From Asterionella formosa (taxonomy: Eukaryota), in contig NKIB01014961.1 in assembly GCA_002256025.1 (NCBI GenBank), positions 1 to 39,329 on the forward strand: DNA of 39,329 nt. The letters are read 5' to 3'. The notes beneath the pieces were generated by a model, which saw only the letters and a program-made list of their open reading frames with translations, ran no database searches and was not told the origin of the DNA. The position numbers and the translations under genes were made by a program. Shown piece after piece: positions 21 through 38,438 of this stretch (positions are counted from its first letter, which is position 1; every line of letters starts with the position of its first letter).

Positions 21-968
21 ATGCACCTGTCGATAACCAAAACAGCGCTCTATTGTGTTGCTTTGTCGACTTGCTTCGTTGGATCCCTTTACGCTTTGGT
101 ACCTTCAAGGATTAGACGTTTGGATCGAGATAATATTCAGCAAATTCGAGGACGCATGTTTGCTGTATCAATGGTCAGTCTTGTGTCAACTTTGACCTAT
201 CCGTTGGTGTTTTGCAACATCGCTATGGAAGGCATTGAAGGTAGCCCATCAGCTTTGGAATTCATGGGTTGGAAATGGCACCTTCGAACTGTTTTGGGGG
301 TTCTAGCTCACACCGCTTCTCTCTACTTTGGATCAATTGCTACTATGCTGGTTCAAGTGATTGATCGTTATGCACGAAGCCCAGCTGATACGAGCTTCTC
401 CGCAATTTTCTTTTCTGCCTTTATCAAGCCAGTAGTTTCTCCTTATTTCGATCCTTTTGACGAATCTGAACGATGGAGTCAGATCCGAAACATCATTATG
501 GCTCCACTTACCGAAGAAATTGTCTTTCGTGGATGCATGATGTCACCACTATTGGCCAGTGGCCTTGGGCCAATCGGAGCAACATTTATTGCTCCTCTCT
601 TCTTTGGGGTGGCCCACGCCCATCATGCTATATTAAAGCTCCAAGGAGGCGCGAAACCAGCGCATGTCATTGTTTTAACTGCCTTCCAGTTCACTTACAC
701 GTCTCTATTTGGGAGTTATGCTGCTCATGTATTTATTCGAACTGGCTCAATTCCTGCTGTATTCCTTTCGCATTCATTTTGTAATTCAATGGGACTTCCT
801 GACTTGTCGTTTTTGTACAAAACAGGGGGCCGTTATTCTAGCCTCTACCAATTTCGATTTTTCCTCTTGATTTCCTATCTCATCGGCGTAATTACCTTCG
901 TTTGGGGCATCAGGAGTGACATGCTATTACCCCTTCCAAGCCGGCTACCAGAATTGATAAGCGTTTGA
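21..968 (+). CDS. RCE1: CAAX prenyl protease 2 (Rce1, CPBP/Abi family intramembrane protease)
   Basis: 315-aa hydrophobic ORF with the CPBP motifs APLTEEIVFRG, FFGVAHAHH and HSFCNSMGLP, plus QFTYTSLFGSY. Confidence 0.93.
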   Translation: MHLSITKTALYCVALSTCFVGSLYALVPSRIRRLDRDNIQQIRGRMFAVSMVSLVSTLTYPLVFCNIAMEGIEGSPSALEFMGWKWHLRTVLGVLAHTASLYFGSIATMLVQVIDRYARSPADTSFSAIFFSAFIKPVVSPYFDPFDESERWSQIRNIIMAPLTEEIVFRGCMMSPLLASGLGPIGATFIAPLFFGVAHAHHAILKLQGGAKPAHVIVLTAFQFTYTSLFGSYAAHVFIRTGSIPAVFLSHSFCNSMGLPDLSFLYKTGGRYSSLYQFRFFLLISYLIGVITFVWGIRSDMLLPLPSRLPELISV

Positions 969-1344
969 CATCAACTAAAAATAGATCGCTGTCTACTATT
1001 GCACTCTCAGATTCCAATAAAGGCAACAGCATGTGATAACAATTGGCCCAAAATACTTCAAACAGTGGCGTTCTTCACGATCCAGGCAGCGTTGCGTTTC
1101 ACTTGAATTTCCTACCGAATGAATGGACTTATAGATGTTCTGGCCTTGCAGTGAACGCGTCAACCACAAATCAATTGGGATGATCCTGTGCAATCATACT
1201 TGATGCAACTGACTATGACGGCCAGGTTCATATTGAGTTTGCAGCATAAAGGAGAAAATAAAGGCAATCCTATCAATGTTGATAAATAACAGACTAACGG
1301 TCTACAGGAGGGACACTAAATCATCAGGGCAGCGTACGCACGAA

Positions 1345-3993
1345 CTATGTACATCGCATGTTGTCAAGATAGGGCTCGATCATCTTGGCAATGTCGACCA
1401 GCTTACCATCTTGCCTTGGTTGCTCCGTCGTCAAGCTCGAGAAGGCCATACCATAGGCTAAGTTTTCTCGTGTTACAGCGACAGAGGCATATACAGCTTC
1501 GCCTAATATCAGTCGCAAGCGCAAAGCTTCATTGTATGCACGAGTAGCGTCATCGAACTTCCTCCTTTTAACCAAAACAAATCCGAAATTGCATAGCACT
1601 GTCGCAAGAGCAGCTTGAAGTGGCGCCCCGCCAGTGAACGATGAGTTGCGCAGAATTTCAATTGATTCTTCCAAGGCTTTGGATGCCGGCAATAATCCGC
1701 CGCATTCATAGTGAAAACAGGCCAAGTTGCTGAGAGTTTTGGCAACTTCAGGATGGTTGTATCCCAAAGTCTTCCTTCTTGCACGCAAAACTTGTGAAAA
1801 TATCATGATTGCGTTGTCAAAGTCTTTTCTTGCTGCTTGAATTAATCCCATCTTCGTCAAGGATATCTGTAAATGGTAAAATGTGAGTCACTTAAAAAAG
1901 ATACGAACTAGATTTTGCACAGTTCTGCTTACAGCGACATCCGGGTGTTCGAAACCAAGCGTGGCAGAACGAATGCTAACAGCGTGCTGGAAGTAAGCGA
2001 ATGCAGCAGTGTACTTCTCTATGAAGAGCATCACCATCCCTAGATTGTGAAGAGTTGCCGCTACTAAAGGGTGAAGTGTTCCATACTTCTTTCTATGAGA
2101 CCGAAGCGTTCCTTTCAAGAGTTCGAGTACGTCGTCGATCTCGTTGCGCTTTTGGTTGGAAATTGAGGAAAAACTTAGGATCGCAAAATTTAAAAAAATT
2201 CAAAGGCTGGCATAACTTACCTCCAAGTATTCTTTTGCTTGCGTGTATATGTGAGGCAGATGCAAATCAGCATCGATTACTTCAGTGCCGTCTACATCGA
2301 TTGGAATTGAGAAACGTGTTGCATGCGTTGCAGGAACAAAAGTGAGTTCGCTTTTGGTCAAACAACTAAAGCTTTCCATGATCGTGTCTCGAACAAGTTG
2401 GTATGGACCTATTTGATGAACAAGTGATCCAAGATCGACATAGTCACACAAAATGTCTTGTCCGTTTGTTGCTCTCGGCAGTGGAAGGCCCTCGTCAAAG
2501 ATCCTTTGTGCACGCCATGCTGGAAATTCAGGAGCCTCTGATACCAAATCCGCCTCGATGGATGAATCTATTCTTTTTGTTCTAGAAACTCGTTCTTCCG
2601 CATTAGCGAGTGATTCGAGGTGCTCAAGTGTTTCCAATATTGCTTCATTCCCATCTTCCAGAACCGATTCTTGCAACAGTAGGCACTCGTCCAAATGCGA
2701 TATCGCCTCACTGTAACGCTGTTCCCGTGCTTCGAGAATGGCCAAATTGCTCAAAGTTGTTGCCGTATTAAGAAGTTCCTTTCGAAATTGACTCGGAACA
2801 CCCTGAATTTGCTTTCTAAGAGCAATCGACTCATTGAGTGCCCTTTCGGCGGAAACAGCATCTCCTAAATAAATTTGCAAACAAGCTATGTTGTTCCACA
2901 ACAGTGACGCGACAGCTAAGTTCGTTCCAACCTTGTATGCAGCTTCTCTCCATGAAATTAAAGCATTGGCAAAGTCGCTCAAGCCAAAGTAGGTCAGACC
3001 TAGTTGTATTCGAGCAACCAATGCTGATTGCGTGTCGAATGCTGATCGCTGCAAAATTTCCTCGCTGTAATTCAAAGCTTTCTGCTGCTCGCCTGCCAAT
3101 AGACTGACCGATGATAGCCGACAAAGAAGTGGAGTTATAAATGAAGGGTTGGACTTTCGTCGACGCAGATCACGTAGCAAACTTTCGTAAGTTTCCAGTG
3201 CTTTCGCAAAATCTTGTTGATACAGATGTAGTTGAACCACCCCATCAACTACATGTAGGACATTTTCGTCATGACTCACCAAGAGTGATTCGTCGTCAAC
3301 TCGAACAGGCAAACTACGTTTTGAATCTCCTATGTTGACATCGTTCTTTGCTGGCTGGACAATGAGTTGGAGGTGCCAATGGATAGACCTCTCGAGAACG
3401 TCGGTTGGAAGCGGTAGATTCTGTTCAATAAACAGTTTCTGCCCTTGTGAGGCCAAGGTTTCGTTGGATTGAACACTAGGCTCGTCATCTCTATATATTG
3501 CAGCAGTCGGCATCAGCAGTGCTATATATACAAATGACAATAGGGGGCTGCTTCCGTGTCGCTTAAAATTACCAGATGGTATTGTCGTTGCGTTCGTCTG
3601 CACGTCGGAGTGCGACGCCAAGGCGGAATCCAAAGTATTCGCCGGCGACACACACTGTCTGCCCCACTGCTTCAAAACTGAATCCATTTTGACGCTTTCT
3701 CCCATCATGCTTTCTTCGTCGTCCTCCGGTATCAAGAGTAGTCGATCAAGTTCCAATGTGCTTGCAGCCAGTTTATCCGCTCCTTGTGGTTGCTCCACAA
3801 CGCTCTCATGTAAAGAACTCAAATCGTCACCGTCCATAACGTATTCCCCATTTAAGCAAAGAAACGTGGGGGGTTCCGCAGGAATCGACGAGAAATCACT
3901 ATGGTCTACAGACGAGCCGTCGCCTCCCGGTAAAAGAATACTCGACTTTCCGTCGGGCTTTTTGGGACTTCGACGTTTCAGTAGTCTTCTCAT
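1345..3993 (-). CDS. TPR-repeat protein (kinesin light chain/nephrocystin-3-like TPR_12 repeats), at least 3 exons
   Basis: Exons 3993-2221, 2148-1933 and 1866-1345. GT-AG introns 2220-2149 (GTAAGT..AAAG) and 1932-1867 (GTAAGC..TTACAG) join the three ORFs in frame. Repeats include HPLVAATLHNLG, LGFEHPDVA, LGYNHPEVAKTLSNLA and ATTLSNLA. Confidence 0.85.
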
Positions 3994-4140
3994 CTTCGAT
4001 CCTTTGGAAAATTAACGACGTATACTGTCACTTAGTAGGTTCTTTGGATCTAACAGGACCACATTATGAGGCACTTAATGCAGACTAATGTACTCGTCGG
4101 CCTCTCTTGGTCGAGTTCGGTGATTTTGATGCCGGGTTCA

Positions 4141-4523
4141 TGGTACCAGGTAGCAGTACCCTGGTACCTGGTACCTGGTACCGGGTAGGAGTTGGAGTAG
4201 GAGTAGAATTTAGAATAATCCAACCCTAGATCTCTATTATGTATATATATATGTATTACAAAATCATTTAACCAAACCCTCATTCATTAGGTCTTTAAAA
4301 TAACTCTTTCTACCGGTATGCACTGGCAGGGTACTCGTAGGTCCAGTATATGCGATACATATGTAGCATAGCCAGGCTATGTTTCCAAAGGATAAAATTG
4401 TCTTTTACTAGTGAACCCTACTTATCATGGTCTAGCTGTGTGCGTACCTGGTACCGGTACGATACAGTTCATGATATGCTGTTACTGGAACTGGTACCAG
4501 GTACCATGTAAGTACTGGTACCA
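4141..4523. promoter_or_regulatory. Cluster of GGTACC/TACCWGGTA/TACCGGTA words in the divergent intergenic region
   Basis: For example tggtaccaggtagcagtaccctggtacctggtacctggtaccgggta at 4141-4187, with more copies at 4443-4523. A regulatory role is inferred from position only. Confidence 0.4.
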
Positions 4524-5329
4524 GCTAAAACCTGGCTGAGAGCCAGCAACGTTTTAAACATTTTGAACTGCGAGTCAACGTAAAATCGAGTAAATTTGCT
4601 AGAAACGAACGTAATTACCGGTATTCAAGCAATGCATGTTGTAGCGATCAACTGGTACTTTGTAGTATAGTTTACCGGTATACAGTTCCATTACTACCAA
4701 AAATGATCGTGCCTTTTAGGGTATAGCTATCGACTACATATCAAGATTCTTCCATTGTATGTATGTAGGATTAAATGTGCCAGGAGACAATTTTCCTCGA
4801 CGCGTGTTTTTAATTTCAAGACGTTATAGACAGACTTTTTGTATCTGCTATACATAAAGTTTTATCGGAAAGTGACCATTCCGATTACCCACACGCGAGC
4901 AACGCATCAACGTTTCGTTGTGATGCTTTTCTACAAAACATAAATTCCGGTAATCTCGACGACCCTTGGCTCCATCGCTAAATCTATTTATCGACGACGG
5001 ATTAAAAAATATGCTACAGTATACATAGCATAAATTACATAGATATCGGTACTCTTGTAAGGTTCATATGACGGGTTCAATGTCGCGTGCATCCCCAATG
5101 GTCGGCCGATCGAAGCAAGCTCCTGATAATAGCAAAATATTCTTTTTCTCACAAACAAGACATCGTCGTGCACGGCCCGTCGGGTTTTTCATCTCTAATT
5201 CGATACACAACAAGAATTCGAATAGTAAGTATATTCGGCGATACAGATCAGGTGATCGTTGTATCGCTGCATAGTAAAGTCAATTCGGTCGTAACAGAAG
5301 TGGAAACCGAATACTAGACTTATTCCAAC

Positions 5330-6670
5330 ATGATGGCGGCAATTTCGCCAGAACGGAAAAATGCTGGTATTTCCACCAAGAATAGAGGGCAAAGTTGGAT
5401 GGATGGGTGCTTTGCAGACTTTGCTTGCTTGAAAATCGAGCAAACAGTGAAGAAGAATGGAGGAGAAGGAAATCAACCGACAGCGCAGAAACTGCTTATT
5501 TTGAAGGGGCCGGAGAATGTGCTTCTTGGGCCAAACGGAAAGATTGCTTTAAATGCCTCCATTGCACATTGGAAAAGGAGAATTACACAATATATGTTTA
5601 CTGGTCAGATAAAGCAATACCATCTTGCACAACCGAATGAAAACAAGGCTTCAATCGAATCCAGAGACGATGAGCAAAGCTTCGCAGAAGATTTTTCGCT
5701 TGAAACTAGAGGAGCAGTTATATCTACATCAATGCAACAGGTCACTGACATCATAATTAGCCCAATTATGGAAACCAACGATGAAGGCACTGACGGTCAC
5801 TTGTCTCAATTTGAAAGCATCGTCATCCTGTTGCAGTCTAGGCGCTTCCAACTTGCATTGAATACCCTGAACAATATGCTTGAGAGTGACATCAACAAAT
5901 TTGGTGAAATCAGCCTTCCAGTTGCTTTGCACCTTCACAACAAAGCACTTCTACATCTTGCCTGTGGCAACGCAAGAGAAGCTCTTTATCCGCTTCATGA
6001 AGCGCTCGAAATAAAGCGGGAGATCCTTGGGGGTTCTCATCCCTTTACAACTGTAGGTTGGATTTGTTCGTTTGCATGACAAGCATTGATATCATCTCAT
6101 GTCGCCATTGTTGTTTGAATTTTTCAGGAGTCTCATCAGCAGCTGGCAATCGCACTTTTGGCATCCGGAGAAACTGAACGGGCTGATCGCATGTTCCGAT
6201 TGCTTTCTACCACATTCAAGGCCTCCGGAAATGACTTGAATCTTGCTTGCTGTTACAACACATTGGGATGCATTAATTTTGTCAATGGAGCCGTTGATAG
6301 GGCTGGGTTCTTCTTTCAAGTTGCCTTGGACGCGTTTGTGTCTATTCCTGGTTCGTCACAAGATTTAAGCAAGGCAGAGATAGGACTAGCACTTTGCAAG
6401 GCAAGTTTGGGTGTTCTGGAAATGTCAAGAGGATTGGCGGGAGCATTATCTACATTAGTTGATGCCGAAACAGTGAGTATCCCAAATTGTGCTTGGGATA
6501 AAAAGTCGCCGATGATTCCATGTTCTCACGATGTATCCACGTACTCATTCGCATTTCAGTCCCTTCAAGGCCTTGTTAGAAGTGACGACGCTTTGTTGTT
6601 GTCGATATCTCTGAGTGTCAAGCGAGCCAAAATTGCTTGCTGGAAGCTCGTTGACAACGATAAAAAGTGA
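5330..6670 (+). CDS. TPR-repeat protein, 3 exons
   Basis: Exons 5330-6052, 6128-6472 and 6560-6670. Introns are 6053-6127 (GTAGGT..TTTCAG) and 6473-6559 (GTGAGT..TTTCAG). TPR_12-type motifs: LPVALHLHNKALL, EALEIKREILGGSHP, LACCYNTLGC. Confidence 0.78.
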
Positions 6671-7903: not shown

Positions 7904-8282
7904 GACGACAAGTGTTGAAGCGAGGGAGCAACAGAGGAAAAAGTTGGTGTTCTAAAAAATGGAATTATCGGTACCAGTATATGTTTTGTTAATTCCTCGC
8001 TCAGCCAAACAACAAAAATGACGAAAAATGGCGCGCTTGACCTTGTCTGTCCAAATGCATCGTTGTTATTTGTTATATAAATATTATTCATGGTAAATGT
8101 TTAGTTATACGCATGGATATGTACATGTTTTTGGTAGGAAGGGAGTACCGGGTATCTACATATAACTGATGGAGCGGCTGTGTTTATTTTTATGAAGGTA
8201 GAAAACTCGCCGCAAGAGCGAATTTTTGTAAGGTTATTTCATCACCTGCTGCTGCCACAACGAGACCTACCGGTAAGCAAAG

Positions 8283-9245
8283 ATGGTCCCTCGACGTGTT
8301 GGTCTCTACTTGGCCTTGAGCTTTGCTCCCCAAACTACGCATGCTTGGAATCTGTCATCCCGAGCCAAGTTTCTCGCCTCCAGTGCTGCTACTTTTCTGA
8401 CATCGGCCGTAATCATGGCGTCGGATCCTGATGCTTCCTGCGCTGCTGCGCCTTCGCCTCGATACGTCGATTCCGAAATTGAAATGAACTATGGTAGCGA
8501 GAGTGCGCCTCGTACACGAGGCGTGCTGGTTCGACGTTTTACGGGTGATTCCACCCCATTTCAGTTCCCAGTCACACCAGTTCGTTTGATGAAAGTATGG
8601 CCAGAAGAACCACCCTTTGAGCCCAAGGATTTTTCTAGGGATGACGAGAGTGATGATGGAGGATTTTACACGGTACCTCGACTTGTATATCACATTGATG
8701 AGCCAGCGGTGGCATCCTTGACGCAATATTATCGCAACAACATCCCCCCAAACTCGGATATTCTGGATATCTGTTCGTCATGGGTTAGTCATTACCCAGT
8801 TGAATTCAAAGATACAATGGGTCGTATTTCTGGAAGTGGTATGAATGGGTTGGAGCTAAAGTTCAATGATCAACTCAGTGACTTTGAAGCCAAGAATCTC
8901 AACAAGGACCCAACCTTGCCATACCCTGACAATAGTTTTGATGTGGTCACCTGTGTTGTATCCATTGATTATCTCATTCATCCAATCGAAGTGTTACGGG
9001 AAGTTAATCGAGTCCTCAAACCAGGTGGAAAGGCAATTTTATCTCAATCCAATCGCTGCTTTCAAACCAAGGCTATTCGTATGTGGTTGGGAATGAATGA
9101 TCGTCAACATTTGGAGCTTATCAATTCGTTTTTCCAATATGCTGGAGGCTTTGAGGAGCGCAAAGCATATGATATCACAGCAACAGTACCCAATGGGGAA
9201 TATCGGGATCCAATGTTTGTCATTGAAGCAACCAAGATGAAGTGA
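8283..9245 (+). CDS. Class I SAM-dependent methyltransferase (type 11), probably plastid-targeted
   Basis: Motifs DESDDGGFYTVPRLVYHID, ILDICSSWVSHYP, LPYPDNSFDVVTCVVSIDYL, EVNRVLKPGG and SNRCFQTKAI. The N-terminal signal peptide ends THA|W. Confidence 0.88.
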   Translation: MVPRRVGLYLALSFAPQTTHAWNLSSRAKFLASSAATFLTSAVIMASDPDASCAAAPSPRYVDSEIEMNYGSESAPRTRGVLVRRFTGDSTPFQFPVTPVRLMKVWPEEPPFEPKDFSRDDESDDGGFYTVPRLVYHIDEPAVASLTQYYRNNIPPNSDILDICSSWVSHYPVEFKDTMGRISGSGMNGLELKFNDQLSDFEAKNLNKDPTLPYPDNSFDVVTCVVSIDYLIHPIEVLREVNRVLKPGGKAILSQSNRCFQTKAIRMWLGMNDRQHLELINSFFQYAGGFEERKAYDITATVPNGEYRDPMFVIEATKMK

Positions 9246-9412
9246 AATAGTTACGGCCCTAATAAGAAAGCATGCTATTACACAGATGCAGTAGTATTTC
9301 ATAAAATAGAAGGGACAGGGTGAAATGAAGTGAAATAGTTACGGCCCTAATAAGAAAGCATGCTATTACACAGATGCAGTAGTATTTCATAAAATAGAAG
9401 GGACAGGGTGAA
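9237..9412 (+). repeat. Perfect 88-bp tandem duplication
   Basis: 9237-9324 and 9325-9412 read identically (atgaagtgaaatagttacggccc...ggacagggtgaa) and cover the methyltransferase stop codon and 3' UTR. Confidence 0.95.
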
Positions 9413-9789: not shown

Positions 9790-11400
9790 TACATCAACAT
9801 AGGAAATATTGCTTCAATGAAATGATGTAAACAGCAATCAACACATCAAAGCACACCCATGGACCATACAAAAAATGTCCAAGTCATGATTTTCCAGTCC
9901 ACACATGTACTTTGGAGGTGGGAACTGTCAGCATCCGAAACCTCTGTCCAGAAATTTTGTGTGATTTTGTGCAGCCCAAAACCTGTGTACTCAATATTTT
10001 TGATCAATCTTGATGACCTTCTTGGGCAATATACCAATGTTTCTGCAAAGAGCTTGCGAAAACCGAGCATGCCATCAACCACCCTCCTTACAGGAGTGTC
10101 TATATGCAAGCATGGCATCTTCTGCCATGACTGAAAGAGCGATGCTAACACCTCTATTTAGCCACCATTTTGTGGCCCATATCACCTCCAAACTGATTTG
10201 GAGGCATCTTTCCGTCATGGACATTCAACAACATGTTGAAATTTGTAGTGGCTTTAGAAAACCACTGTATATGTAATCTGTTTTTGCTATTCATGATCTG
10301 CACACAGTCCACCATGCTCATTGCACCATTTTTCGATCCATCTGAGTGGTTGCAGGTTTGCCCTCTACCTTTTGATTAATGATTAAAAAAAATAGAATGA
10401 TTCTAGAACTCGAAAGGAAATAATAAATCAAATAAATGGAAGGCAGTGAAATTCAAATGAATTGGAAATGATGAAAATATTGGATTGCTCATTGATGTGT
10501 TCATCTGTCTCATGTCACAAATTCCTGACTTCTCCCAGCACTTATAATCAAACAAGCAGTTTGTTAGCACTTCATCATGAATCAAAACCTTTCAGATGCT
10601 GGGGCATTGTCAATGTCAACAACTCTAGCTGGAATGGCAACATCATCATAGTCGTGAACTGTGCCATTGCACTTCTTGACAAGTTTGAGAAGCTCTGAAG
10701 GTATCACATCATCTTCTGCTACCTCCTCTAGTGCCACATAATCGCCTTCATCATGGTTAAAGGTCGGGCCAACGCCCCGACGGGTAGGGCAGACCGCGTA
10801 CTGGTCAAGACTGGGGCTGCACACAGGTTTTTAGTGAGTGAAAGTCTCACACTACCTCGCCCAGGTGAGAGGGGTGGGGTGCCTCACCGGACACTGGGAC
10901 ATGACTGGATGACGGGGTGCCTCAAAAACATTCCTGAACACGTGAACTGGTGGGAGGAGTTTGAATCCTCCCATGATGCCCCCCAAGCACCCCACATCGA
11001 TGGGGCAGGCGGGTAAAGCGGCCGGATGGGTTTTCTCCTGGCGCCTTGGAACAGCCCAAAAAAAAATCATGGTTAAAGGTGTCTGGATCACCATCAGAAA
11101 TGATCTAGAAGTGATTTTCAAGGGCATACAACTCAGTTGTATCAGCATCATCCACAGTCCTGGGAGCTGTGATGGCAATGGCAATCACCTCTTTACCTCT
11201 GATTTTCTTGAGCTCCCTCCTCTGCAGAATTGACATTCTTTCAAGTTGATGACATTTGGCAATGTTCATATGATAATTGTAGACCCACAGTAATGGGTGA
11301 ATGAACTTGGAAAGGCATGAAATGATGGCACCTTTGTCCATTGTCAATTTTTGTTTTCATGCAATCCTGCAGAGATATTTTTGGCAGGCAGCCAGACTTC
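9790..11400 (-). mobile_element. Degraded piggyBac-like (DDE_Tnp_1_7-type) transposase relic; element may span ~9700-11530
   Basis: Minus-strand manual translation with stops and frameshifts gives SHYKFQHVV..HDGK..QISLEVIWATKWWLNRGVSIALSVMAEDAMLAY (~10250-10100), a Cys/His-rich tail (LQSTCVD...CVDCCLHH) and an acidic N-terminal region (DGDPDTFNHDEGDYVALEEVAEDD). Confidence 0.7.
10750..11080 (+). mobile_element. A-tailed SINE-like or 5'-truncated non-LTR retroposon (10765-11065) with 15-bp TSD
   Basis: ATCATGGTTAAAGGT occurs at 10750-10764 and 11066-11080, with an A-run at 11058-11066. The GC/CpG-rich insert sits in CpG-poor flanks. Confidence 0.82.
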
Positions 11401-11747
11401 TCATGCATCTGAAATTTTTTAAACCTCTATACTTAGCTTATTGCCATGTATACCTCCAGAAACCTGCAGCTCTGGAGATTTAGATAAACTTTTCAGAAAT
11501 GAAAAATGTAGCAGGGGCAAGGGATTGAAAAGGCAGACTGAATCCAGTCTATTAGACTGAAATCAGCCTATCCGGAAAGAATTCGTATTGCAATGTGATG
11601 CTTGTTAAAATCTTGCTTCAACAACAGCCATCTCAATCACCATCAACTGATGAAGATGTACATACAGCTGGCTAATAGGAATCATCTCATCATATTCCTA
11701 ATTTCAAATGCCTCTGACATCTCCCGTTTGAACAGATCCAACCAAAA

Positions 11748-13196
11748 ATGAGTGAAACCGCCTCCAAGAAAAGATCCAGATCTCCTTTACTAGCAGGCGA
11801 TGCGGATTTAACCAAACTTCCCGAAGAATTGCAAGGCGTGGACTTTTCCAAGCCAGTGTCTTGGGGCAAATGCTATCCCTATGTTGGTCCAGATGGAATA
11901 CCAGCTGCGCCTTTGACGTTGGTGCCAGTTGGCACGGCTCCACAATTCACAGAATCGTCGCCTGCGCTTTGTTTTCAAGTCCATGCAAGTAGTGGCCGTG
12001 CCAGAGCCTGCACTATGCACCTCCCGCATGGGCCTGTGGCCACGCCGGTCTTTATGCCGGTTGGCACAAAGGGAACACTCAAAGGAGTCACGTACGATGA
12101 AATTACATCAGATCCAGCTCTAGACAATCAAATCATTCTCGCGAATACTTATCATATGGCGCTGCAACCCACAACAGAGGTTCTCAGAGACCTTGGCGGT
12201 CTACATACATTTATGAATTGGAAACGAAACATCCTCACTGACTCTGGCGGCTTCCAAATGGTCTCTCTGTTGTCACTTGCAGAAATTACGGAGGAAGGAG
12301 TCACCTTTGATTCGCCATTTTCGAAAGACAAGGATAATCCCGAGCGCATGTTGCTTCGGCCAGAAGATTCGATTCGACACCAGAATGAAATCGGTTCTGA
12401 CATTATGATGGCCTTGGATGATGTCGTAAGCAGTGTAACAGTAGACGACGTTAGATTCAAAGTTGCAACCTACCGGACACTTCGATGGCTGGATCGATGT
12501 TTCGAAGCGAACGCGCACCCCAAGACGCAGAACCTCTTTCCCATTGTACAGGGTGGCTTGGATACCAGTGTTGGTGGCCTTAGAGAACAATGCCTGGCGG
12601 GATTCCGCAACCGAGACGGCAAAATTCCTGGATACGCCATTGGTGGATTGGCTGGTGGTGAGTCCAAAGAGGAGTTTTGGAAAGTAGTCGATCAATGTTG
12701 TCGTGCGTTACCAGATGACCGACCCCGCTATTTGATGGGGGTTGGATATCCATTAGATTTGGTGGTTTGTGTGAGTTTGGGCGTGGATATGTTCGACTGT
12801 GTCTACCCCACCCGAACTGCTCGATTTGGAGTTGCCTTAATCCCTGGAGCGACCCCAGGAACTCTCAGATTAAAGAGCCATGAGTGTGCAAAGGACGATC
12901 GAGCCATCCAGGATGGATGTGCATGCCAAGCTTGCAACGGAGGGTATTCCCGATCAAGGCTTCACACACTCTTCAAGAATGGAAATACCATGGCTGCACA
13001 GCTATTAACGCAGCACAATATTGCCTATATGATGACATTGGTTCGAACAATGCGACAGACAATTTTGGATGGGAAGTATCCTGAGTTTGTTAAAGAATTT
13101 ATCTATGATCAGTATCAAGGCAAAGAAAATGGTGGCGAGGATATTCCACCATGGGTCCGGGATGCTTTGGCATCAGCAGGTATTCTGCTAAGTTAG
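11748..13196 (+). CDS. QTRT1: Queuine tRNA-ribosyltransferase catalytic subunit (eukaryotic TGT)
   Basis: Motifs TPVFMPVGT, ILANTYH, LTDSGGFQMVSL, IVQGG, AIGGLAGGE, YLMGVGYP and DMFDCVYPTRTARFG. Zn site CACQAC...HN. Confidence 0.96.
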   Translation: MSETASKKRSRSPLLAGDADLTKLPEELQGVDFSKPVSWGKCYPYVGPDGIPAAPLTLVPVGTAPQFTESSPALCFQVHASSGRARACTMHLPHGPVATPVFMPVGTKGTLKGVTYDEITSDPALDNQIILANTYHMALQPTTEVLRDLGGLHTFMNWKRNILTDSGGFQMVSLLSLAEITEEGVTFDSPFSKDKDNPERMLLRPEDSIRHQNEIGSDIMMALDDVVSSVTVDDVRFKVATYRTLRWLDRCFEANAHPKTQNLFPIVQGGLDTSVGGLREQCLAGFRNRDGKIPGYAIGGLAGGESKEEFWKVVDQCCRALPDDRPRYLMGVGYPLDLVVCVSLGVDMFDCVYPTRTARFGVALIPGATPGTLRLKSHECAKDDRAIQDGCACQACNGGYSRSRLHTLFKNGNTMAAQLLTQHNIAYMMTLVRTMRQTILDGKYPEFVKEFIYDQYQGKENGGEDIPPWVRDALASAGILLS

Positions 13197-25694: not shown

Positions 25695-26034
25695 ATTATT
25701 ACTACTCCTTCCGGTAGTTAGATACTTCACCAGGTACCTGGTACCCTGGTACCAAGAGCCTGGTACCTGTTACTGGTGCTTTGTCTACCATTCATACCAG
25801 TAAGTAAGGAAGGTCCCGTGAACTCCCGTATGCGGAGCCAGCCTCTTTGAACCTACCGGTAGGCGCCTACTTGTCTACTTGTAGTTCATGTAGACCCAAC
25901 CATATTACCGGTACCAGGTACCAGGTACCACCAGATAGTACCTGGTATCTCAATGCGATCTGACTGAGGTGTTATTTTGGGATCGAATTTTGTTGACTCA
26001 TGTCAATTCACAAGATCAAACCTTCGATTCCATC

Positions 26035-28546: not shown

Positions 28547-29307
28547 GAAACAGATTACTCAGGTTCTCGAGTAGCGAAGAAGATTATGAGCATAGTAAAG
28601 TTGTTGAACTCTGTACTCGTCACACTTCTTTAAAAAATGTTGAAAAGGCAACAAAAGAAGGCCGACCCTGACCGATGTCACATACTGGTGGTACCAGGTA
28701 CCAGTGTAGGATAGCCACAGTATACAAGAATACAAGTATGCACTGGTACCTTGCACCAGGGTACCTGGTAGTTAGTACATATCTCTAAATTATACGGAGT
28801 ACCTGAATGTACCGGTATGTATCATAGTAGGGCCTACATCAGCAAAGGGAAAGTGCAACAAGGAACGACCAGTCGTATGTAGCATACCGGTACAAGGTAC
28901 CTGGTACCATGGTTCCATGCCGGTAGTAGACGACACACTATCATCAGACATGCGAGTGCGCTGCCCCAGTAAACATCTGCATTCAACCACTGATTCCTGC
29001 CATTTGATTGATTCATTAGACTAAACGTTAACTTTACTCCTCTCTGACGTACCGGTAGATGTTTGTGGTACCTGGTATTGATGTAAGAAGGAGTCAGCAT
29101 ATGTTACCATCATGTTCAGAGTTACGCTTGCGACCCCAGCACAATTACAAATTGCGAGGGCTGTATTTTCCCAAAATATTTTTATGATGTTCCTCAATCT
29201 ACACCTTACCAGCAACTAATATTATAGTTTAAGGTAAAATTAGCTTTCACCAATACCACCACTTTGCAGATGCTTAGATACGTCATTGGTTGACTTGAGG
29301 GTATTTT

Positions 29308-29472: not shown

Positions 29473-30079
29473 CTATATATTGTTATCTTCATGAAACCCC
29501 ACAGATTTAGAGCAATCCTCCTCTAAACAGTCGACCCTATTGATCAGCAAAATATTGAAATCGGAATCTGTCTGTGCGAAAACATTCTTGTAGTATACAA
29601 AAGAGTCTTGTGTAGGTATATATGTGTGCATAGCTAATTATCTGTTCGAAAAGGCGCCATGGTTAGTTACCATGTAACAACAAATATTCTGATTGGTTGA
29701 ATTTATTTTACTCACCTGCTCCAGATTGGCTGGTGTATCCTGGTCTCGGAAAATCTCGTCAGCCACACTTGCACCACATTTATTAGATGAATCAGTAAAA
29801 TCAGCACTATCAGTAGTTTCATGTATGACATCAACACGAGGAGGTGCTTGCATTTTGCTGTAGTTGTATGGTCATCATAGTGCATTGCTAGTCTATACAT
29901 GTGCTCTGGCAGGGAGTAGAATTATATCTTCATTGAGCAATGTTGATATAACATAAACGCCTTCATTTTGTTTGAAATGGAACTCTTTCAATGTGGCGCC
30001 AATCTCTAATTAGTTTAAATATCAGGACAGATACTTGCAACATGGGAACACACAGAAACAAATTCCCTGCTCCATGGCA

Positions 30080-30429
30080 CTTTTACAACCCTAGCCAAGC
30101 TTTACTCCAAACTAGGGTCAAGCCGGGGCCGCAACAACCTTAAATTAAACATCTGTTTCAGGAGATACACATGCAAACATGTACATAGTCAAATTTTCTA
30201 GTTTTCTGGCTTCGTTATTAAAGCTAAAACTCGTTAAAGTTGTTTCCCCACGGCTCTTTTACAACCCTAGCCAAGCTGTACTCCAAACTAGGGTCAAGCC
30301 GGGGCCGCAACAACCTTAAATTAAACATCTGTTTCAGGAGATACACATGCAAACATGCACATAGTCAAAAATTTCTAGTTTTCTGGCTTCGTTATTAAAG
30401 CAAAAACTCGTTAAAGTTGTTCCCCCACG
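30080..30429 (+). repeat. Near-identical ~176-bp tandem duplication
   Basis: Copies start at 30080 and 30256 (cttttacaaccctagccaagct.tactccaaactagggtcaagccggggccgc...) and differ at only a few positions. Confidence 0.95.
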
Positions 30430-34561: not shown

Positions 34562-36427
34562 ATGATTTCCTCGGTCGAATGGGTGCCGAAGGGTGTGGCT
34601 GATCCCACACCGAAAAAATACGAAATGAGTCCAGCGGAACGCGAACTGATAGAGCAACAGGCGAACATGGAAGAGGCTCTAGGTGACGATGACGGCAACG
34701 ACGACGAGGACGTGGACGTCGAACCAGTGAAGTCCAAAATTGTTCTGCCCCCAGTCGATCCAAAGTCACTCCCTGCAGATCTGCGCATGGACGAATATTC
34801 GGATGACGACGACGAGAATTTAGCAATCGCAGGCTCTCACATTGGCAATATGTTGGTTGGAAGAGAACATCAGATGTTTGGGACTAAGACAGGTGAGGAT
34901 GGCATGCCGGAAGAAGACATAGACGAAGAAGACGAAGACGAAGGCGACGAAACAAAGACTGAAGTTGCCATTGGTGATTCTGATAGTGACAATGATGAAT
35001 CTGATGACGATTTGGCTGATATCCCCGATACACGAGAGTATATTCCAGTCGACGTCGAAGGGCTAGAGGCGATGGGATTATCAGCTGTCAGCACCAACGG
35101 TGCCATGTACCTCGAAAATCTAGGAGACGAATCAGACGCTGAAGATAGCGACGCTGATGATTTGCGCTTGTCTCCTGATGATGCAATTATTGTTGTGGCC
35201 AAAACTGAAGAGGATTTTGCGTCCCTTGAAATTCACGTATATGAAGAGAAGTCGGGAAACTTGTTTGTCCATCATGATATACCGCTGCCATCGTTTCCAC
35301 TCTGTCTTGCCCACGGAGATATCAATAGCGACGGTCAAGCTGGGAACTACTGTGCCGTCGGAACGTTTGGGCCGGGCATTGAAGTATGGAACCTCGATGT
35401 GTTGAATGCGCTCGAACCATCTTGTATCCTGGGTGGAGAAGATACGACAGCTGCCGATGAGCTGATGAAAGCCAATATGGTGAGAGCCGCATCTGGGAAA
35501 AAGCTGAAAAAGAAGAAATACCAAAACGCCGGCCTTCGCCTTGGAAGTCACACTGATGCTGTCATGTGTCTTGCGTGGAACAAGATTCATCGACAAGTGA
35601 TTGCCAGTGGATCAGCTGATTGCACAGTCAAGATTTGGGACATTACCAAAGCAGGAGAAGCGAATGGCAAGTCCAACGCTGCTACATTTAGTCATCATAG
35701 AGAAAAGGTCCAGGCTGTAAAATGGCATCCGACAGAAGGGACACTATTGGCTACTGGATCGTATGATCGAACCGTTGCTCTATTGGACGCTCGCTCGTCA
35801 GAGCAGCATATCAAAAAGGTGAAAATAACAGCGGATTGTGAATCGCTATCATGGGATCCGCACCATCCCCAGTATCTGACATGTGCGACAGAGGATGGTG
35901 TCGTTTCCTGTTGGGATGTCAGGAAATTCGAGTCGGGCGAGCCATTATGGTCCTTTGTGGCAGAAGAGTATGGCGGTGTTAGTGACTTGAGCTACAACCC
36001 TACCGTGCCTGGATTGTTGGCAACTTGTGCAATTAACAAGACAGTGACGCTGTGGGACACATATACAAACGGAGCGCCTTCCGGTGTTCAACCGCAAGTT
36101 TGCGGAAACAAGGACATGCAAGTTGGCAAGTTGTACACCATTTCATTTTATCAATCTTCACCTTGGTTACTTGGATGTGGTGGTTCTGGTAACCAGCTTG
36201 CTTTGTGGGATATCTCCAGTGAAGCGGCTGTCATGAAGCGATTTGGAGATCGATTTTCGGGCAGTGTTTCTGCTCATGCCGACAACACAGTTGTGCAATC
36301 CAACAAGGAGCAAGATTTCGAAGCCATGATGGCCGTGGGCGACGCGGAAGTCGAACAGAAGCGCGAGGATACCAAGAAATTAAAACAAGGCAAGAACAAG
36401 AAGAAGGTTCATCGACGAGGTAAATAA
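34562..36427 (+). CDS. PWP1: Periodic tryptophan protein 1 (WD40)
   Basis: Starts MISSVEWVPKG at ATG 34562. Acidic region, then FVHHDIPLPSFPLC, AVGTFGPGIEVWNLD and HTDAVMCLAWN..ASGSADCTVKIWD. Confidence 0.93.
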   Translation: MISSVEWVPKGVADPTPKKYEMSPAERELIEQQANMEEALGDDDGNDDEDVDVEPVKSKIVLPPVDPKSLPADLRMDEYSDDDDENLAIAGSHIGNMLVGREHQMFGTKTGEDGMPEEDIDEEDEDEGDETKTEVAIGDSDSDNDESDDDLADIPDTREYIPVDVEGLEAMGLSAVSTNGAMYLENLGDESDAEDSDADDLRLSPDDAIIVVAKTEEDFASLEIHVYEEKSGNLFVHHDIPLPSFPLCLAHGDINSDGQAGNYCAVGTFGPGIEVWNLDVLNALEPSCILGGEDTTAADELMKANMVRAASGKKLKKKKYQNAGLRLGSHTDAVMCLAWNKIHRQVIASGSADCTVKIWDITKAGEANGKSNAATFSHHREKVQAVKWHPTEGTLLATGSYDRTVALLDARSSEQHIKKVKITADCESLSWDPHHPQYLTCATEDGVVSCWDVRKFESGEPLWSFVAEEYGGVSDLSYNPTVPGLLATCAINKTVTLWDTYTNGAPSGVQPQVCGNKDMQVGKLYTISFYQSSPWLLGCGGSGNQLALWDISSEAAVMKRFGDRFSGSVSAHADNTVVQSNKEQDFEAMMAVGDAEVEQKREDTKKLKQGKNKKKVHRRGK

Positions 36428-36502
36428 GCGCCTGCTGTGAGAATATGAAGAAGCTGTTGTAGTATCACAACCACATCATTTCTTAAGTGCTAGAATAAAC
36501 CC

Positions 36503-37132
36503 NNNNNNNNNNNNNNNNNNNNNNNNNNNNNNNNNNNNNNNNNNNNNNNNNNNNNNNNNNNNNNNNNNNNNNNNNNNNNNNNNNNNNNNNNNNNNNNNNN
36601 NNNNNNNNNNNNNNNNNNNNNNNNNNNNNNNNNNNNNNNNNNNNNNNNNNNNNNNNNNNNNNNNNNNNNNNNNNNNNNNNNNNNNNNNNNNNNNNNNNNN
36701 NNNNNNNNNNNNNNNNNNNNNNNNNNNNNNNNNNNNNNNNNNNNNNNNNNNNNNNNNNNNNNNNNNNNNNNNNNNNNNNNNNNNNNNNNNNNNNNNNNNN
36801 NNNNNNNNNNNNNNNNNNNNNNNNNNNNNNNNNNNNNNNNNNNNNNNNNNNNNNNNNNNNNNNNNNNNNNNNNNNNNNNNNNNNNNNNNNNNNNNNNNNN
36901 NNNNNNNNNNNNNNNNNNNNNNNNNNNNNNNNNNNNNNNNNNNNNNNNNNNNNNNNNNNNNNNNNNNNNNNNNNNNNNNNNNNNNNNNNNNNNNNNNNNN
37001 NNNNNNNNNNNNNNNNNNNNNNNNNNNNNNNNNNNNNNNNNNNNNNNNNNNNNNNNNNNNNNNNNNNNNNNNNNNNNNNNNNNNNNNNNNNNNNNNNNNN
37101 NNNNNNNNNNNNNNNNNNNNNNNNNNNNNNNN
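36503..37132. other. Assembly gap (N run)
   Basis: 630 Ns; ORF-track entries spanning it are artefacts. Confidence 0.99.
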
Positions 37133-37154
37133 CAGCAACAAGCATCAGAGCGCG

Positions 37155-38438
37155 ATGATGAGTCCCCTTCTGAACTCAACCCCCAATGACGACGACCCGT
37201 TGAGTCCTCCTTCCATAGACGATGTGTTTCCTACACAATCATCGCGAGTACTGGACCGCGACGGAGACAACCACCAATCCCGAGGTCATTGGGGTGTGCA
37301 GCGACTAAGGTCTGGGGCCCGACTGCGACAAGGGTCGAGAAGTCGGCTGCAACGATTTTGGGAAAACTGGTTTCATTCTCTGGCCTACAAGCCGACTTTT
37401 CAGTTAATGGCAATTATTTTCATGCTTTACTGTGGTGCAGTGTTCTTTTTCGCTGGGGTCTATCTAGGCATTGCCATGCTAGGAAATAGCAATTTGCCTG
37501 GTGGTGAAGGAAGTTTCTGTCGCATGGACATCAACAATCACATGGACGCACTGTACTTCAGCTTGTCAACCATGACCACGATTGGATACGGTGTGTCCGA
37601 CTATTATTTCGGGGACTGCTGGACGCCGCTGCTGCTGGTTTTGTGGCAATCTTGCACGGCTATCGCCTTCCAATCTGTAGCCATTGGACTCTTGTTTCAA
37701 AGGATCTCGAGAGGACAAAAGAGAGGCAAAACAATCATCTTTTCCGATAAAGCTGTGGTGCAAAGGGTCAAGGGAGTACCACATTTCATGTTTCGAGTTG
37801 CTGAAATGAGAAGCCATTTTTTGATTGAAGCTCATGTGAGATGCTATTGCTTGCGACATGAGCGATGTATATCGCCAGACAATGTGAATCAAGTGGAGAC
37901 CACGCTTTTCTTGACACGGCATATGAAGCTCTTGCATCCAGATGAATCCATAGGGAGCCACATTCTCATGACTTTGCCACAAGTGATTGTGCATCGGATG
38001 GATGAACTGTCACCGTTGGTCCCAAATGATCCCATCTGGTATGATGCAAATGGAAGTGAACACACCACCTTGGTTGACACGAACAACCATAACCCATCCT
38101 TACAGCTTGACCATTCTACCACTGCCAATGACCGCATGCAGCACTTTCTCAGGGATCGTCAAGCCGAAATCGTAGTTTTAGTGGAAGGTACAGATGAAAT
38201 CACAGGTTCCACCGTTCAAGCAAGACATTCGTATAGAGTCGACGACATTGCATGGGACCACACCTTTCAGAATTGTATTCTTCCCTACAGCCAACATCAG
38301 AGTGAAAACTGTAACTGGATGCAACAACGTTGTGATCGACGGTTGGAGGATCCCATTTGCGCTGTGGACTACGCCAAGTTTCACAATGTCGTTCCCGTGT
38401 CACCGGATTCTCTATCGTGTCCGTATATTCCCAGATGA
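37155..38438 (+). CDS. Inward-rectifier potassium channel (Kir family)
   Basis: M1 helix, pore LYFSLSTMTTIGYG, M2 helix and cytoplasmic motifs IIFSDKAVV, FMFRVAEMR..LIEAHVR, VIVHRMDELSPL, EIVVLVEG and QARHSY. The start lies 22 nt from the gap, so the 5' end is uncertain. Confidence 0.92.
   Translation: MMSPLLNSTPNDDDPLSPPSIDDVFPTQSSRVLDRDGDNHQSRGHWGVQRLRSGARLRQGSRSRLQRFWENWFHSLAYKPTFQLMAIIFMLYCGAVFFFAGVYLGIAMLGNSNLPGGEGSFCRMDINNHMDALYFSLSTMTTIGYGVSDYYFGDCWTPLLLVLWQSCTAIAFQSVAIGLLFQRISRGQKRGKTIIFSDKAVVQRVKGVPHFMFRVAEMRSHFLIEAHVRCYCLRHERCISPDNVNQVETTLFLTRHMKLLHPDESIGSHILMTLPQVIVHRMDELSPLVPNDPIWYDANGSEHTTLVDTNNHNPSLQLDHSTTANDRMQHFLRDRQAEIVVLVEGTDEITGSTVQARHSYRVDDIAWDHTFQNCILPYSQHQSENCNWMQQRCDRRLEDPICAVDYAKFHNVVPVSPDSLSCPYIPR

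Follow-up and report, generated by a model that had tools for sequence, protein, structure and literature searches.

Contig NKIB01014961.1 of the diatom Asterionella formosa (assembly GCA_002256025.1), 39,329 bp long and referred to below as the window, carries at positions 10765-11065 a GC-rich segment of 301 bp which ends in a run of A's, lies between two copies of a 15-mer and interrupts an older reading frame. The question which this locus raises is what kind of element was inserted there. A preliminary description, made from the letters alone, had offered three identities: a possibly undescribed diatom short interspersed nuclear element (SINE), the 3' untranslated region (UTR) of a long interspersed nuclear element (LINE), or a retrocopy of a structured non-coding RNA (ncRNA). 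Our analysis makes it very probable that a poly(A)-ending LINE gave rise to the insert, a 5'-truncated ("dead on arrival") copy lying in a piggyBac-like remnant, and that the insert is neither a SINE nor a retrocopied ncRNA.

The parent LINE and its copies

The parent element was found by scanning metagenome contigs with a pattern taken from the conserved part of the insert, which returned six loci (L001 to L006). The insert is 97.0-98.0% identical to the 3' ends of all six across 300-301 nt, that is, over its full length. Each of the three long loci (L004, L005 and L001) contains a single open reading frame (ORF) of 1498-1500 amino acids, located in L004 at 570-5069, and the three ORFs show 99.5% mutual identity. 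Pfam analysis revealed an Exo_endo_phos domain at residues 250-456 (E 5.4e-11) and a reverse transcriptase domain, RVT_1, at residues 809-1043 (E 2.5e-27), and the translation contains a Cys/His knuckle (CPFC...H....C) close to the C-terminus. A separate ORF1 was not seen in these three loci.

The parent ORF terminates in ...TSTGQRPDG* in L004, L005 and L001. The insert opens at ...CGGGCCAACGCCCCGACGGGTAG, which codes for the final residues GQRPDG*; its first letters, CG GGC CAA CGC CCC GAC GGG TAG, comprise two nucleotides, six codons and the stop (10765-10787), so that the window copy begins 20 nt ahead of the stop codon of the parent ORF. Upstream of 10765 there is ORF sequence in all six loci and host flank in the window. 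The A runs of the loci vary from 8 to about 15 nt, and the flanks beyond them represent five distinct places, L001 and L006 being at the same one. A start 20 nt before the ORF stop, followed by the 3' UTR and a run of eight A's, identifies the insert as a LINE copy which was truncated at its 5' end in the course of target-primed reverse transcription. The preliminary description had reasoned that staggered 5' ends leading into a reverse transcriptase ORF would support a LINE tail, and that a single copy with no related LINE or ncRNA would count against its proposals. In the three long copies the upstream frame does specify an endonuclease and a reverse transcriptase, and six LINE loci share the tail. 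Of the three identities it is therefore the LINE 3' UTR that holds, since all six loci run upstream into the ORF.

Part of the insert is present in 20 public sequencing runs from 17 studies. The contigs of four of these (X1, X2, X6 and X15) were compared with positions 10565-11265 of the window (701 bases), and nothing is concluded here from the runs X7-X14 and X16-X20, with shares of 0.41-0.48. In X1, 6767 contigs were placed on this region and in X2 714, mostly on the insert, and the LINE tail is present in high copy number. In one contig of X6 (1620 nt) and one of X15 (1507 nt), the 3' end consists of the 301 nt with 6 mismatches and then at least 12 A's; upstream of 10765 both contigs extend for roughly another 1200-1300 nt. 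All four runs contain loose ends with no fewer than 12 A's. Furthermore, 45 contigs of X1 continue before 10765 with a LINE-like consensus, ...GACGGGGTCCCACACACCTCCA, at an agreement of 0.78. Since contigs of X6, X15 and X1 extend upstream of 10765, the window copy is the cut-off end of a longer sequence. X15 is an RNA run and its 1507-nt contig contains the ORF end, the tail and the A run; the library may hold DNA, so transcription is not implied. No match to the insert was found in a phage collection (blastn), nor to two patterns in prokaryote genome contigs and viral contigs.

The host element and the insertion

Exactly two copies of the 15-mer ATCATGGTTAAAGGT are present in the window (10750-10764 and 11066-11080), with a perfect match between them (15/15). 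Two or more matches with up to two mismatches were obtained in none of 100 dinucleotide-preserving shuffles. The GC content of the insert is 59.1% versus 42% in the 2 kb surrounding it. A run of eight A's at 11058-11065 closes the insert (nine with the opening A of the right 15-mer), and the insert is single-copy inside the window. The 15-mer count, the shuffles and the base composition thus uphold the perfect 15-bp target-site duplication around a GC-rich, A-ended insert of 301 bp which had been noticed earlier.

When the insert and one 15-mer are excised in silico, a continuous minus-strand frame (frame 2) is restored, which reads ...TTELYALENHF*IISDGDPDTFNHDEGDYVALEEVAEDDVIPSELL..., the peptide around the junction being ...ENHF*IISDGDPDTFNHDEGDYVALEEVAEDD.... 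This restoration had been reported in the preliminary description, from which the in-frame TAG at 11102-11104 (minus strand) of the host remnant was absent. For the host peptide of 83 amino acids (11356-11105, minus strand) there are 42 relatives, whose N-termini are the parts that match it. A Pfam scan took in nine longer ones. P0234 has the start of a DDE_Tnp_1_7 domain (piggyBac type) behind the region which matches the window, at 27.9 bits versus a cut-off of 22.4; P0250 scores 20.4 bits, under that cut-off. The remaining seven of the nine, most of them short fragments, gave no transposase domain. The DDE part was not detectable in the window itself, which retains an N-terminal region of about 150 amino acids. 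These relatives indirectly support the view that the host is the decayed N-terminal remainder of a member of a piggyBac-like transposase family. The earlier claim of an insertion into an older transposase consequently stands as regards the insertion, and its second half is supported indirectly through P0234 (above the cut-off) and P0250 (below it). Transposases related to piggyBac are mentioned for both model diatoms by Maumus et al. (2009, PMC2806351). In comparison with such transposases, where the host's relatives carry the start of the domain, the window host has only the N-terminal part and an in-frame stop.

A paralog, P0217 (...ESHFYIISDVDPHTFSYDEGNYVLEETIEGD), is uninterrupted over the insertion point, and its residues 90-107 align across the junction with the window from 10764 downward (pair E 3e-05). 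It has a tyrosine at the position of the window's TAG, which indicates that the host copy's status as a pseudogene, original or acquired, does not stem from the insertion. Host-paralog contigs of X1 and X2 skip the insert and contain a single 15-mer, their joints leading from 10724, 10725, 10728 or 10732 to 11066 or 11075 with host letters between; in one example (10732 to 11066) the letters between are ACATTATCGCCTTC. These empty sites are paralogs and not an orthologous empty allele. Since the paralogous contigs have one 15-mer without an insert and P0217 reads through the site, the 15-mer is a true target-site duplication and is not native to the host element. The opposite outcome, that other copies of the transposon would contain the segment and both 15-mers natively, had been named beforehand as fatal to the proposal; the paralogs hold one 15-mer and no insert. 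The features of the locus are as follows.

10582 to 10764, minus strand: host, same frame past the insertion point (TFNHDEGDYVALEEVAEDD...), from the restored frame and the P0217 alignment
10750 to 10764, unstranded: left target-site duplication ATCATGGTTAAAGGT, from the 15-mer count; present once only in the paralogous host copies of runs X1 and X2
10765 to 10787, plus strand: end of the LINE ORF, 2 nt and 6 codons (GQRPDG) with the stop TAG at 10785-10787, from the alignment with L001 to L006
10788 to 11057, plus strand: LINE 3' UTR, 270 nt, with the hairpins GTGAG..CTCAC, GGGAGG..CCTCCC and CCCCA..TGGGG; 97.0-98.0% identity to the loci
11058 to 11065, plus strand: tail of eight A's; A runs at the same place in other copies differ in length
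11066 to 11080, unstranded: right target-site duplication, from the 15-mer count
11081 to 11356, minus strand: host, N-terminal part of a decayed piggyBac-like transposase remnant (indirectly supported) with TAG at 11102-11104, from the 42 relatives and Pfam on relatives

The A tail and the long target-site duplication bear out target-primed reverse transcription, which had been put forward as the mechanism; we infer the order of the nicks and the cause of the truncation from the arrangement of the sequence. The endonuclease of the element would introduce a nick into the bottom strand at the point which was to become the left edge of the duplication (top strand ...CCTTC|ATCATGG...), and the freed 3' end would prime reverse transcription on the A tail of the RNA. 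Synthesis of complementary DNA would then break off, or its product be joined to the target, at a length of about 300 nt and at a point 20 nt ahead of the stop codon of the ORF. A second nick 15 bp away on the opposite strand, followed by fill-in, would leave the perfect 15-bp duplication. The target would have been part of a piggyBac-like transposase remnant, namely a non-catalytic N-terminal stretch which was already repeated. The resulting window copy is devoid of coding capacity and of any demonstrated function.

An insertion at the DNA level, by an introner-like or cut-and-paste element or as an artefact of local duplication, was also considered. The plus strand from 10763 to 11078 begins with GT and ends with AG, and the duplication contains AG|GT. 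According to one paper (PMC12130899), introner-type insertions can hold splice sites in their duplications. However, the reading frame which the insertion interrupts runs on the minus strand, and there the duplication offers no GT..AG. Moreover, the segment has an A tail, no terminal inverted repeat was reported across the window at a minimum length of 30, and the insert shows identity with a LINE 3' end. An insertion of this type is, in our estimation, extremely improbable, and the intron or introner version of it was rejected on the A tail and the LINE identity.

Structure, the shared 5' end and the case for a SINE

The preliminary description had called the insert structured and had drawn attention to three hairpins and to a B-box-like GAGTTTGAATC, all of which are present in the sequence. 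The minimum free energy of the insert compared with 200 shuffles gave z values of +0.49 and -0.09 for the two strands, and hence no excess stability. The RNAalifold alignment consisted of five A-type tails and one B-type tail, a single divergent sequence being too few; it contained five pairs with double changes, yet the covariation term was unfavourable (+1.43). With neither energy nor covariation in its favour, the description of the insert as structured is not confirmed. The B tail (L005, 5336-5107) is 82% identical to the LINE tail over its first 133 nt. It keeps ~130 nt at the start of the LINE tail, with the GTGAG..CTCAC hairpin among them, and ~40 nt at its end, and is without the GGGAGG..CCTCCC and CCCCA..TGGGG hairpins. 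If the LINE enzyme recognises the tail, these two conserved ends are candidates for the recognised parts, as judged from one divergent sequence. The motif GGTTTTTAGTGAG..CTCACA, said in the preliminary description to resemble a 3' motif of some elements without long terminal repeats (non-LTR elements), does sit in a LINE 3' UTR and is kept in the B tail.

The B-box-like site reads GTTCGAATCC in most other copies (T>C at 10962). It lies some 190 nt from the start of the unit, in the loop (9 nt) of a hairpin with a stem of 6 bp, and this hairpin is missing in the B tail. No tRNA or tRNA-like gene was found by ARAGORN in the window and the six loci, and Rfam gave no match inside the insert at E values up to 10 or in the three long loci at E values up to 1. 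A functional B-box is not borne out by these results, nor is the SINE reading, given that ORF sequence lies upstream in all six loci. The unit has in common with LINE-partnered SINEs that it is short, non-coding, A-tailed and flanked by a duplication, and that a LINE tail makes up its 3' part; it differs from them in having no head of the RNA polymerase III type and no similarity to tRNA, 5S or 7SL RNA, and in starting inside LINE coding sequence. Weak Rfam rows lay outside the insert, with one exception, RMST_8, which at 16.3 bits versus a gathering score of 80 is taken as chance. At the shared 5' end described below, an inspection by eye for a ribozyme like that of hepatitis delta virus, for which no program was run, revealed no strand complementary to GGGCCAA downstream.

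An origin by retrocopying from a structured ncRNA of the cell, such as one like RNase P/MRP, the signal recognition particle RNA or a tRNA, would agree with the length of about 300 nt, the GC-richness, the several hairpins, a GAAAGUC-like loop and the T-arm-like GTTCGAATCC of the consensus, features which we take to resemble RNase P/MRP motifs. But the Rfam and tRNA searches were negative over the ranges given above, folding equals that of shuffles, covariation support is absent, and the insert is contiguous with a protein-coding ORF and begins with its last codons. We give this origin next to no weight. The Rfam, tRNA and covariation checks suggested in the preliminary description were thus null throughout.

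An observation which random truncation does not predict comes from L005. Nucleotides 1-55 of this contig (minus strand) hold a second copy which starts with GGGCCAACG directly after the eight A's of the full LINE (56-4829), the contig ending 55 nt later. This is the only other truncated copy which could be inspected. The shared start falls in a 28-nt motif, GGGGTCCCACAMACCTCCACGGGCCAAC, which is present at the ORF end and also in the long 5' UTR of the L001 copy. The motif marks a joint in L005 as well (5040-6060, minus strand), where a non-coding body of ~720-1000 nt is joined to the B tail, giving an ORF-less derivative. In L001 (5134-5931, minus strand) the same non-coding body is joined to the LINE 5' region, and both joints are within GGGGTCCCACAMACCTCCACGGGCCAAC.

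These findings raise the possibility that the ~300-nt tail is a discrete mobile unit, propagated as a short RNA from (C)GGGCC (by an internal start, processing or template jumping) which uses the LINE enzyme in trans, that is, a tail-only, SINE-like parasite. Both inspectable truncated copies begin within 1 nt of one another, the start lies inside the motif which recurs in the L001 5' UTR and at the joint of the ~1-kb ORF-less element of L005, and the summed contig depth is far higher on the tail than on its flanks, a depth figure which is not a copy number. Were it true, the unit would be a SINE precursor without a polymerase III head, and the near-identical starts, the motif at the joint and the abundance of the tail would all be explained. 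However, all six metagenome copies run upstream into the ORF, and the 45 loose ends of X1 before 10765 are LINE-like (0.78) and not random flanks. The loose ends of X2 and X15 at 10766 and 10784 belong to a diverged subfamily which still reads as an ORF end. No polymerase III-type head, tRNA or Rfam family was found, the B tail is without the B-box-like hairpin, and two copies are insufficient to set a preferred start. We consider such a unit unlikely. A module boundary at 10765/10766, proposed on the loose ends of X2 and X15, was discarded: the ORF of the diverged subfamily ends in ..TMGQCLDG* and the break is an alignment cut-off.

The identification of the insert as a truncated LINE copy, which we prefer, has several points against it. 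In L005 the start of the second copy differs by no more than 1 nt from that of the window copy, which random truncation does not predict, and with two of two inspectable truncated copies sharing their start, a sample too small to establish a preferred start, a spread of starts is not shown. A tblastn search found no further pieces of the LINE ORF in the 39-kb window. The parent and the other copies are known from metagenome contigs and not from the source genome, and in no public run were all sampled words of the window copy present, the best share being 0.70. The likeness of the ORF to LINE-1 (L1) is that of a best match among solved structures (PDB), human LINE-1 ORF2p at E 8.6e-25 with R2 proteins behind it at 3.7e-14, and is not a phylogenetic clade placement. 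Lastly, the L1 nick site is typically T-rich, and the putative bottom-strand nick, GAT|GAAGG, is unlike it.

Related elements, surroundings and significance

The parent ORF has 92 relatives in the protein collection, few of which bear organism names. Those that do include three brown-algal proteins (Ectocarpus, Pylaiella) with 37-39% identity and, more weakly matched, one protein from a green alga (Haematococcus) and one from a bacterial metagenome bin (Sedimenticola). The relatives P0002-P0008 are much closer, at 77-78% or 53-54% identity. The window copy has in common with truncated insertions of the L1 type a poly(A) end, a target-site duplication of about 15 bp and severe 5' truncation to the 3' UTR, and the parent element shares with L1 an ORF ordered as apurinic/apyrimidinic (AP) endonuclease, then reverse transcriptase. 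The parent differs in having one long ORF of ~1500 amino acids, in which the match to L1 ORF2p is confined to the reverse transcriptase core (residues ~660-975), and the putative nick site in the window is not T-rich.

RTE elements are shorter (about 1000 amino acids), are without a C-terminal Cys/His knuckle and usually do not have long A tails. By this general description, rather than by a comparison of sequences, the parent is set apart from them by its 1500 amino acids, the CPFC..H..C knuckle and its A tails. RTE-like non-LTR elements of the diatoms Thalassiosira pseudonana and Phaeodactylum tricornutum are reported by Maumus et al. (2009, PMC2806351), and have in common with the parent a single ORF holding endonuclease and reverse transcriptase and their presence in diatom genomes.

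The metagenome LINE copies are arranged head to tail. The tail of another copy, with a long A run, lies just upstream of the full copy (L004 1-89, L001 2-70, L005 5040-5100), and the ORF of the next copy starts about 290 nt downstream of a tail. Zepp elements of Chlorella are LINEs which form head-to-tail clusters; the metagenome copies in L004, L001 and L005 (in the last on both sides) likewise lie directly behind the A tails of other copies. The window copy is instead solitary and lies in a DNA-transposon remnant, not in the tail of another LINE.

The nested transposon remnants fill the spacer between a methyltransferase gene and a gene for queuine tRNA-ribosyltransferase (ORF 11718-13196; Pfam TGT, E 6.4e-132). 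The best named relatives of the latter are from diatoms, namely Chaetoceros tenuissimus (70% identity) and Skeletonema (62-63%), with others from Cyclotella and Thalassiosira, and the attribution of the DNA to a diatom, which had been implied beforehand, is supported. The rest of the window is occupied by ordinary cellular genes. The methyltransferase ORF (8277-9245) runs at its end into a perfect tandem duplication with a unit of 88 bp (9237-9412), and two tandem copies of a unit of ~177 bp, 95-97% identical, are located at 30072-30429. A short GGTACC-rich repeat (GTACCTGGTACC-like) forms clusters at 4121-4187, 25741-25927 and 28746-28913; among the metagenome loci, L002 also ends in CCGGTACCCTGGTA just past its LINE tail. 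The GC content falls to 23% over the 1 kb from 36001 to 37000, inside a plus-strand frame (36441-38438) which further on specifies inward-rectifier potassium channel domains. All frames are open in the GC-poor kilobase, which suggests a low-complexity stretch.

In genome annotation it would be right to mask the segment as a fragment of a LINE inside a piggyBac-like remnant, and wrong to enter it as a SINE or an RNA gene. Beyond annotation its importance is small, and the 5' end shared by two truncated copies would be of interest only if it were upheld genome-wide. LINEs make up less than 0.5% of the P. tricornutum genome according to a 2025 preprint (10.1101/2025.10.24.684338). In contrast to their rarity there, we have here a diatom genome with insertions of an A-tailed LINE family whose ORFs are intact and nearly identical, and this family is abundant in sequence data from marine, estuarine and freshwater sources.

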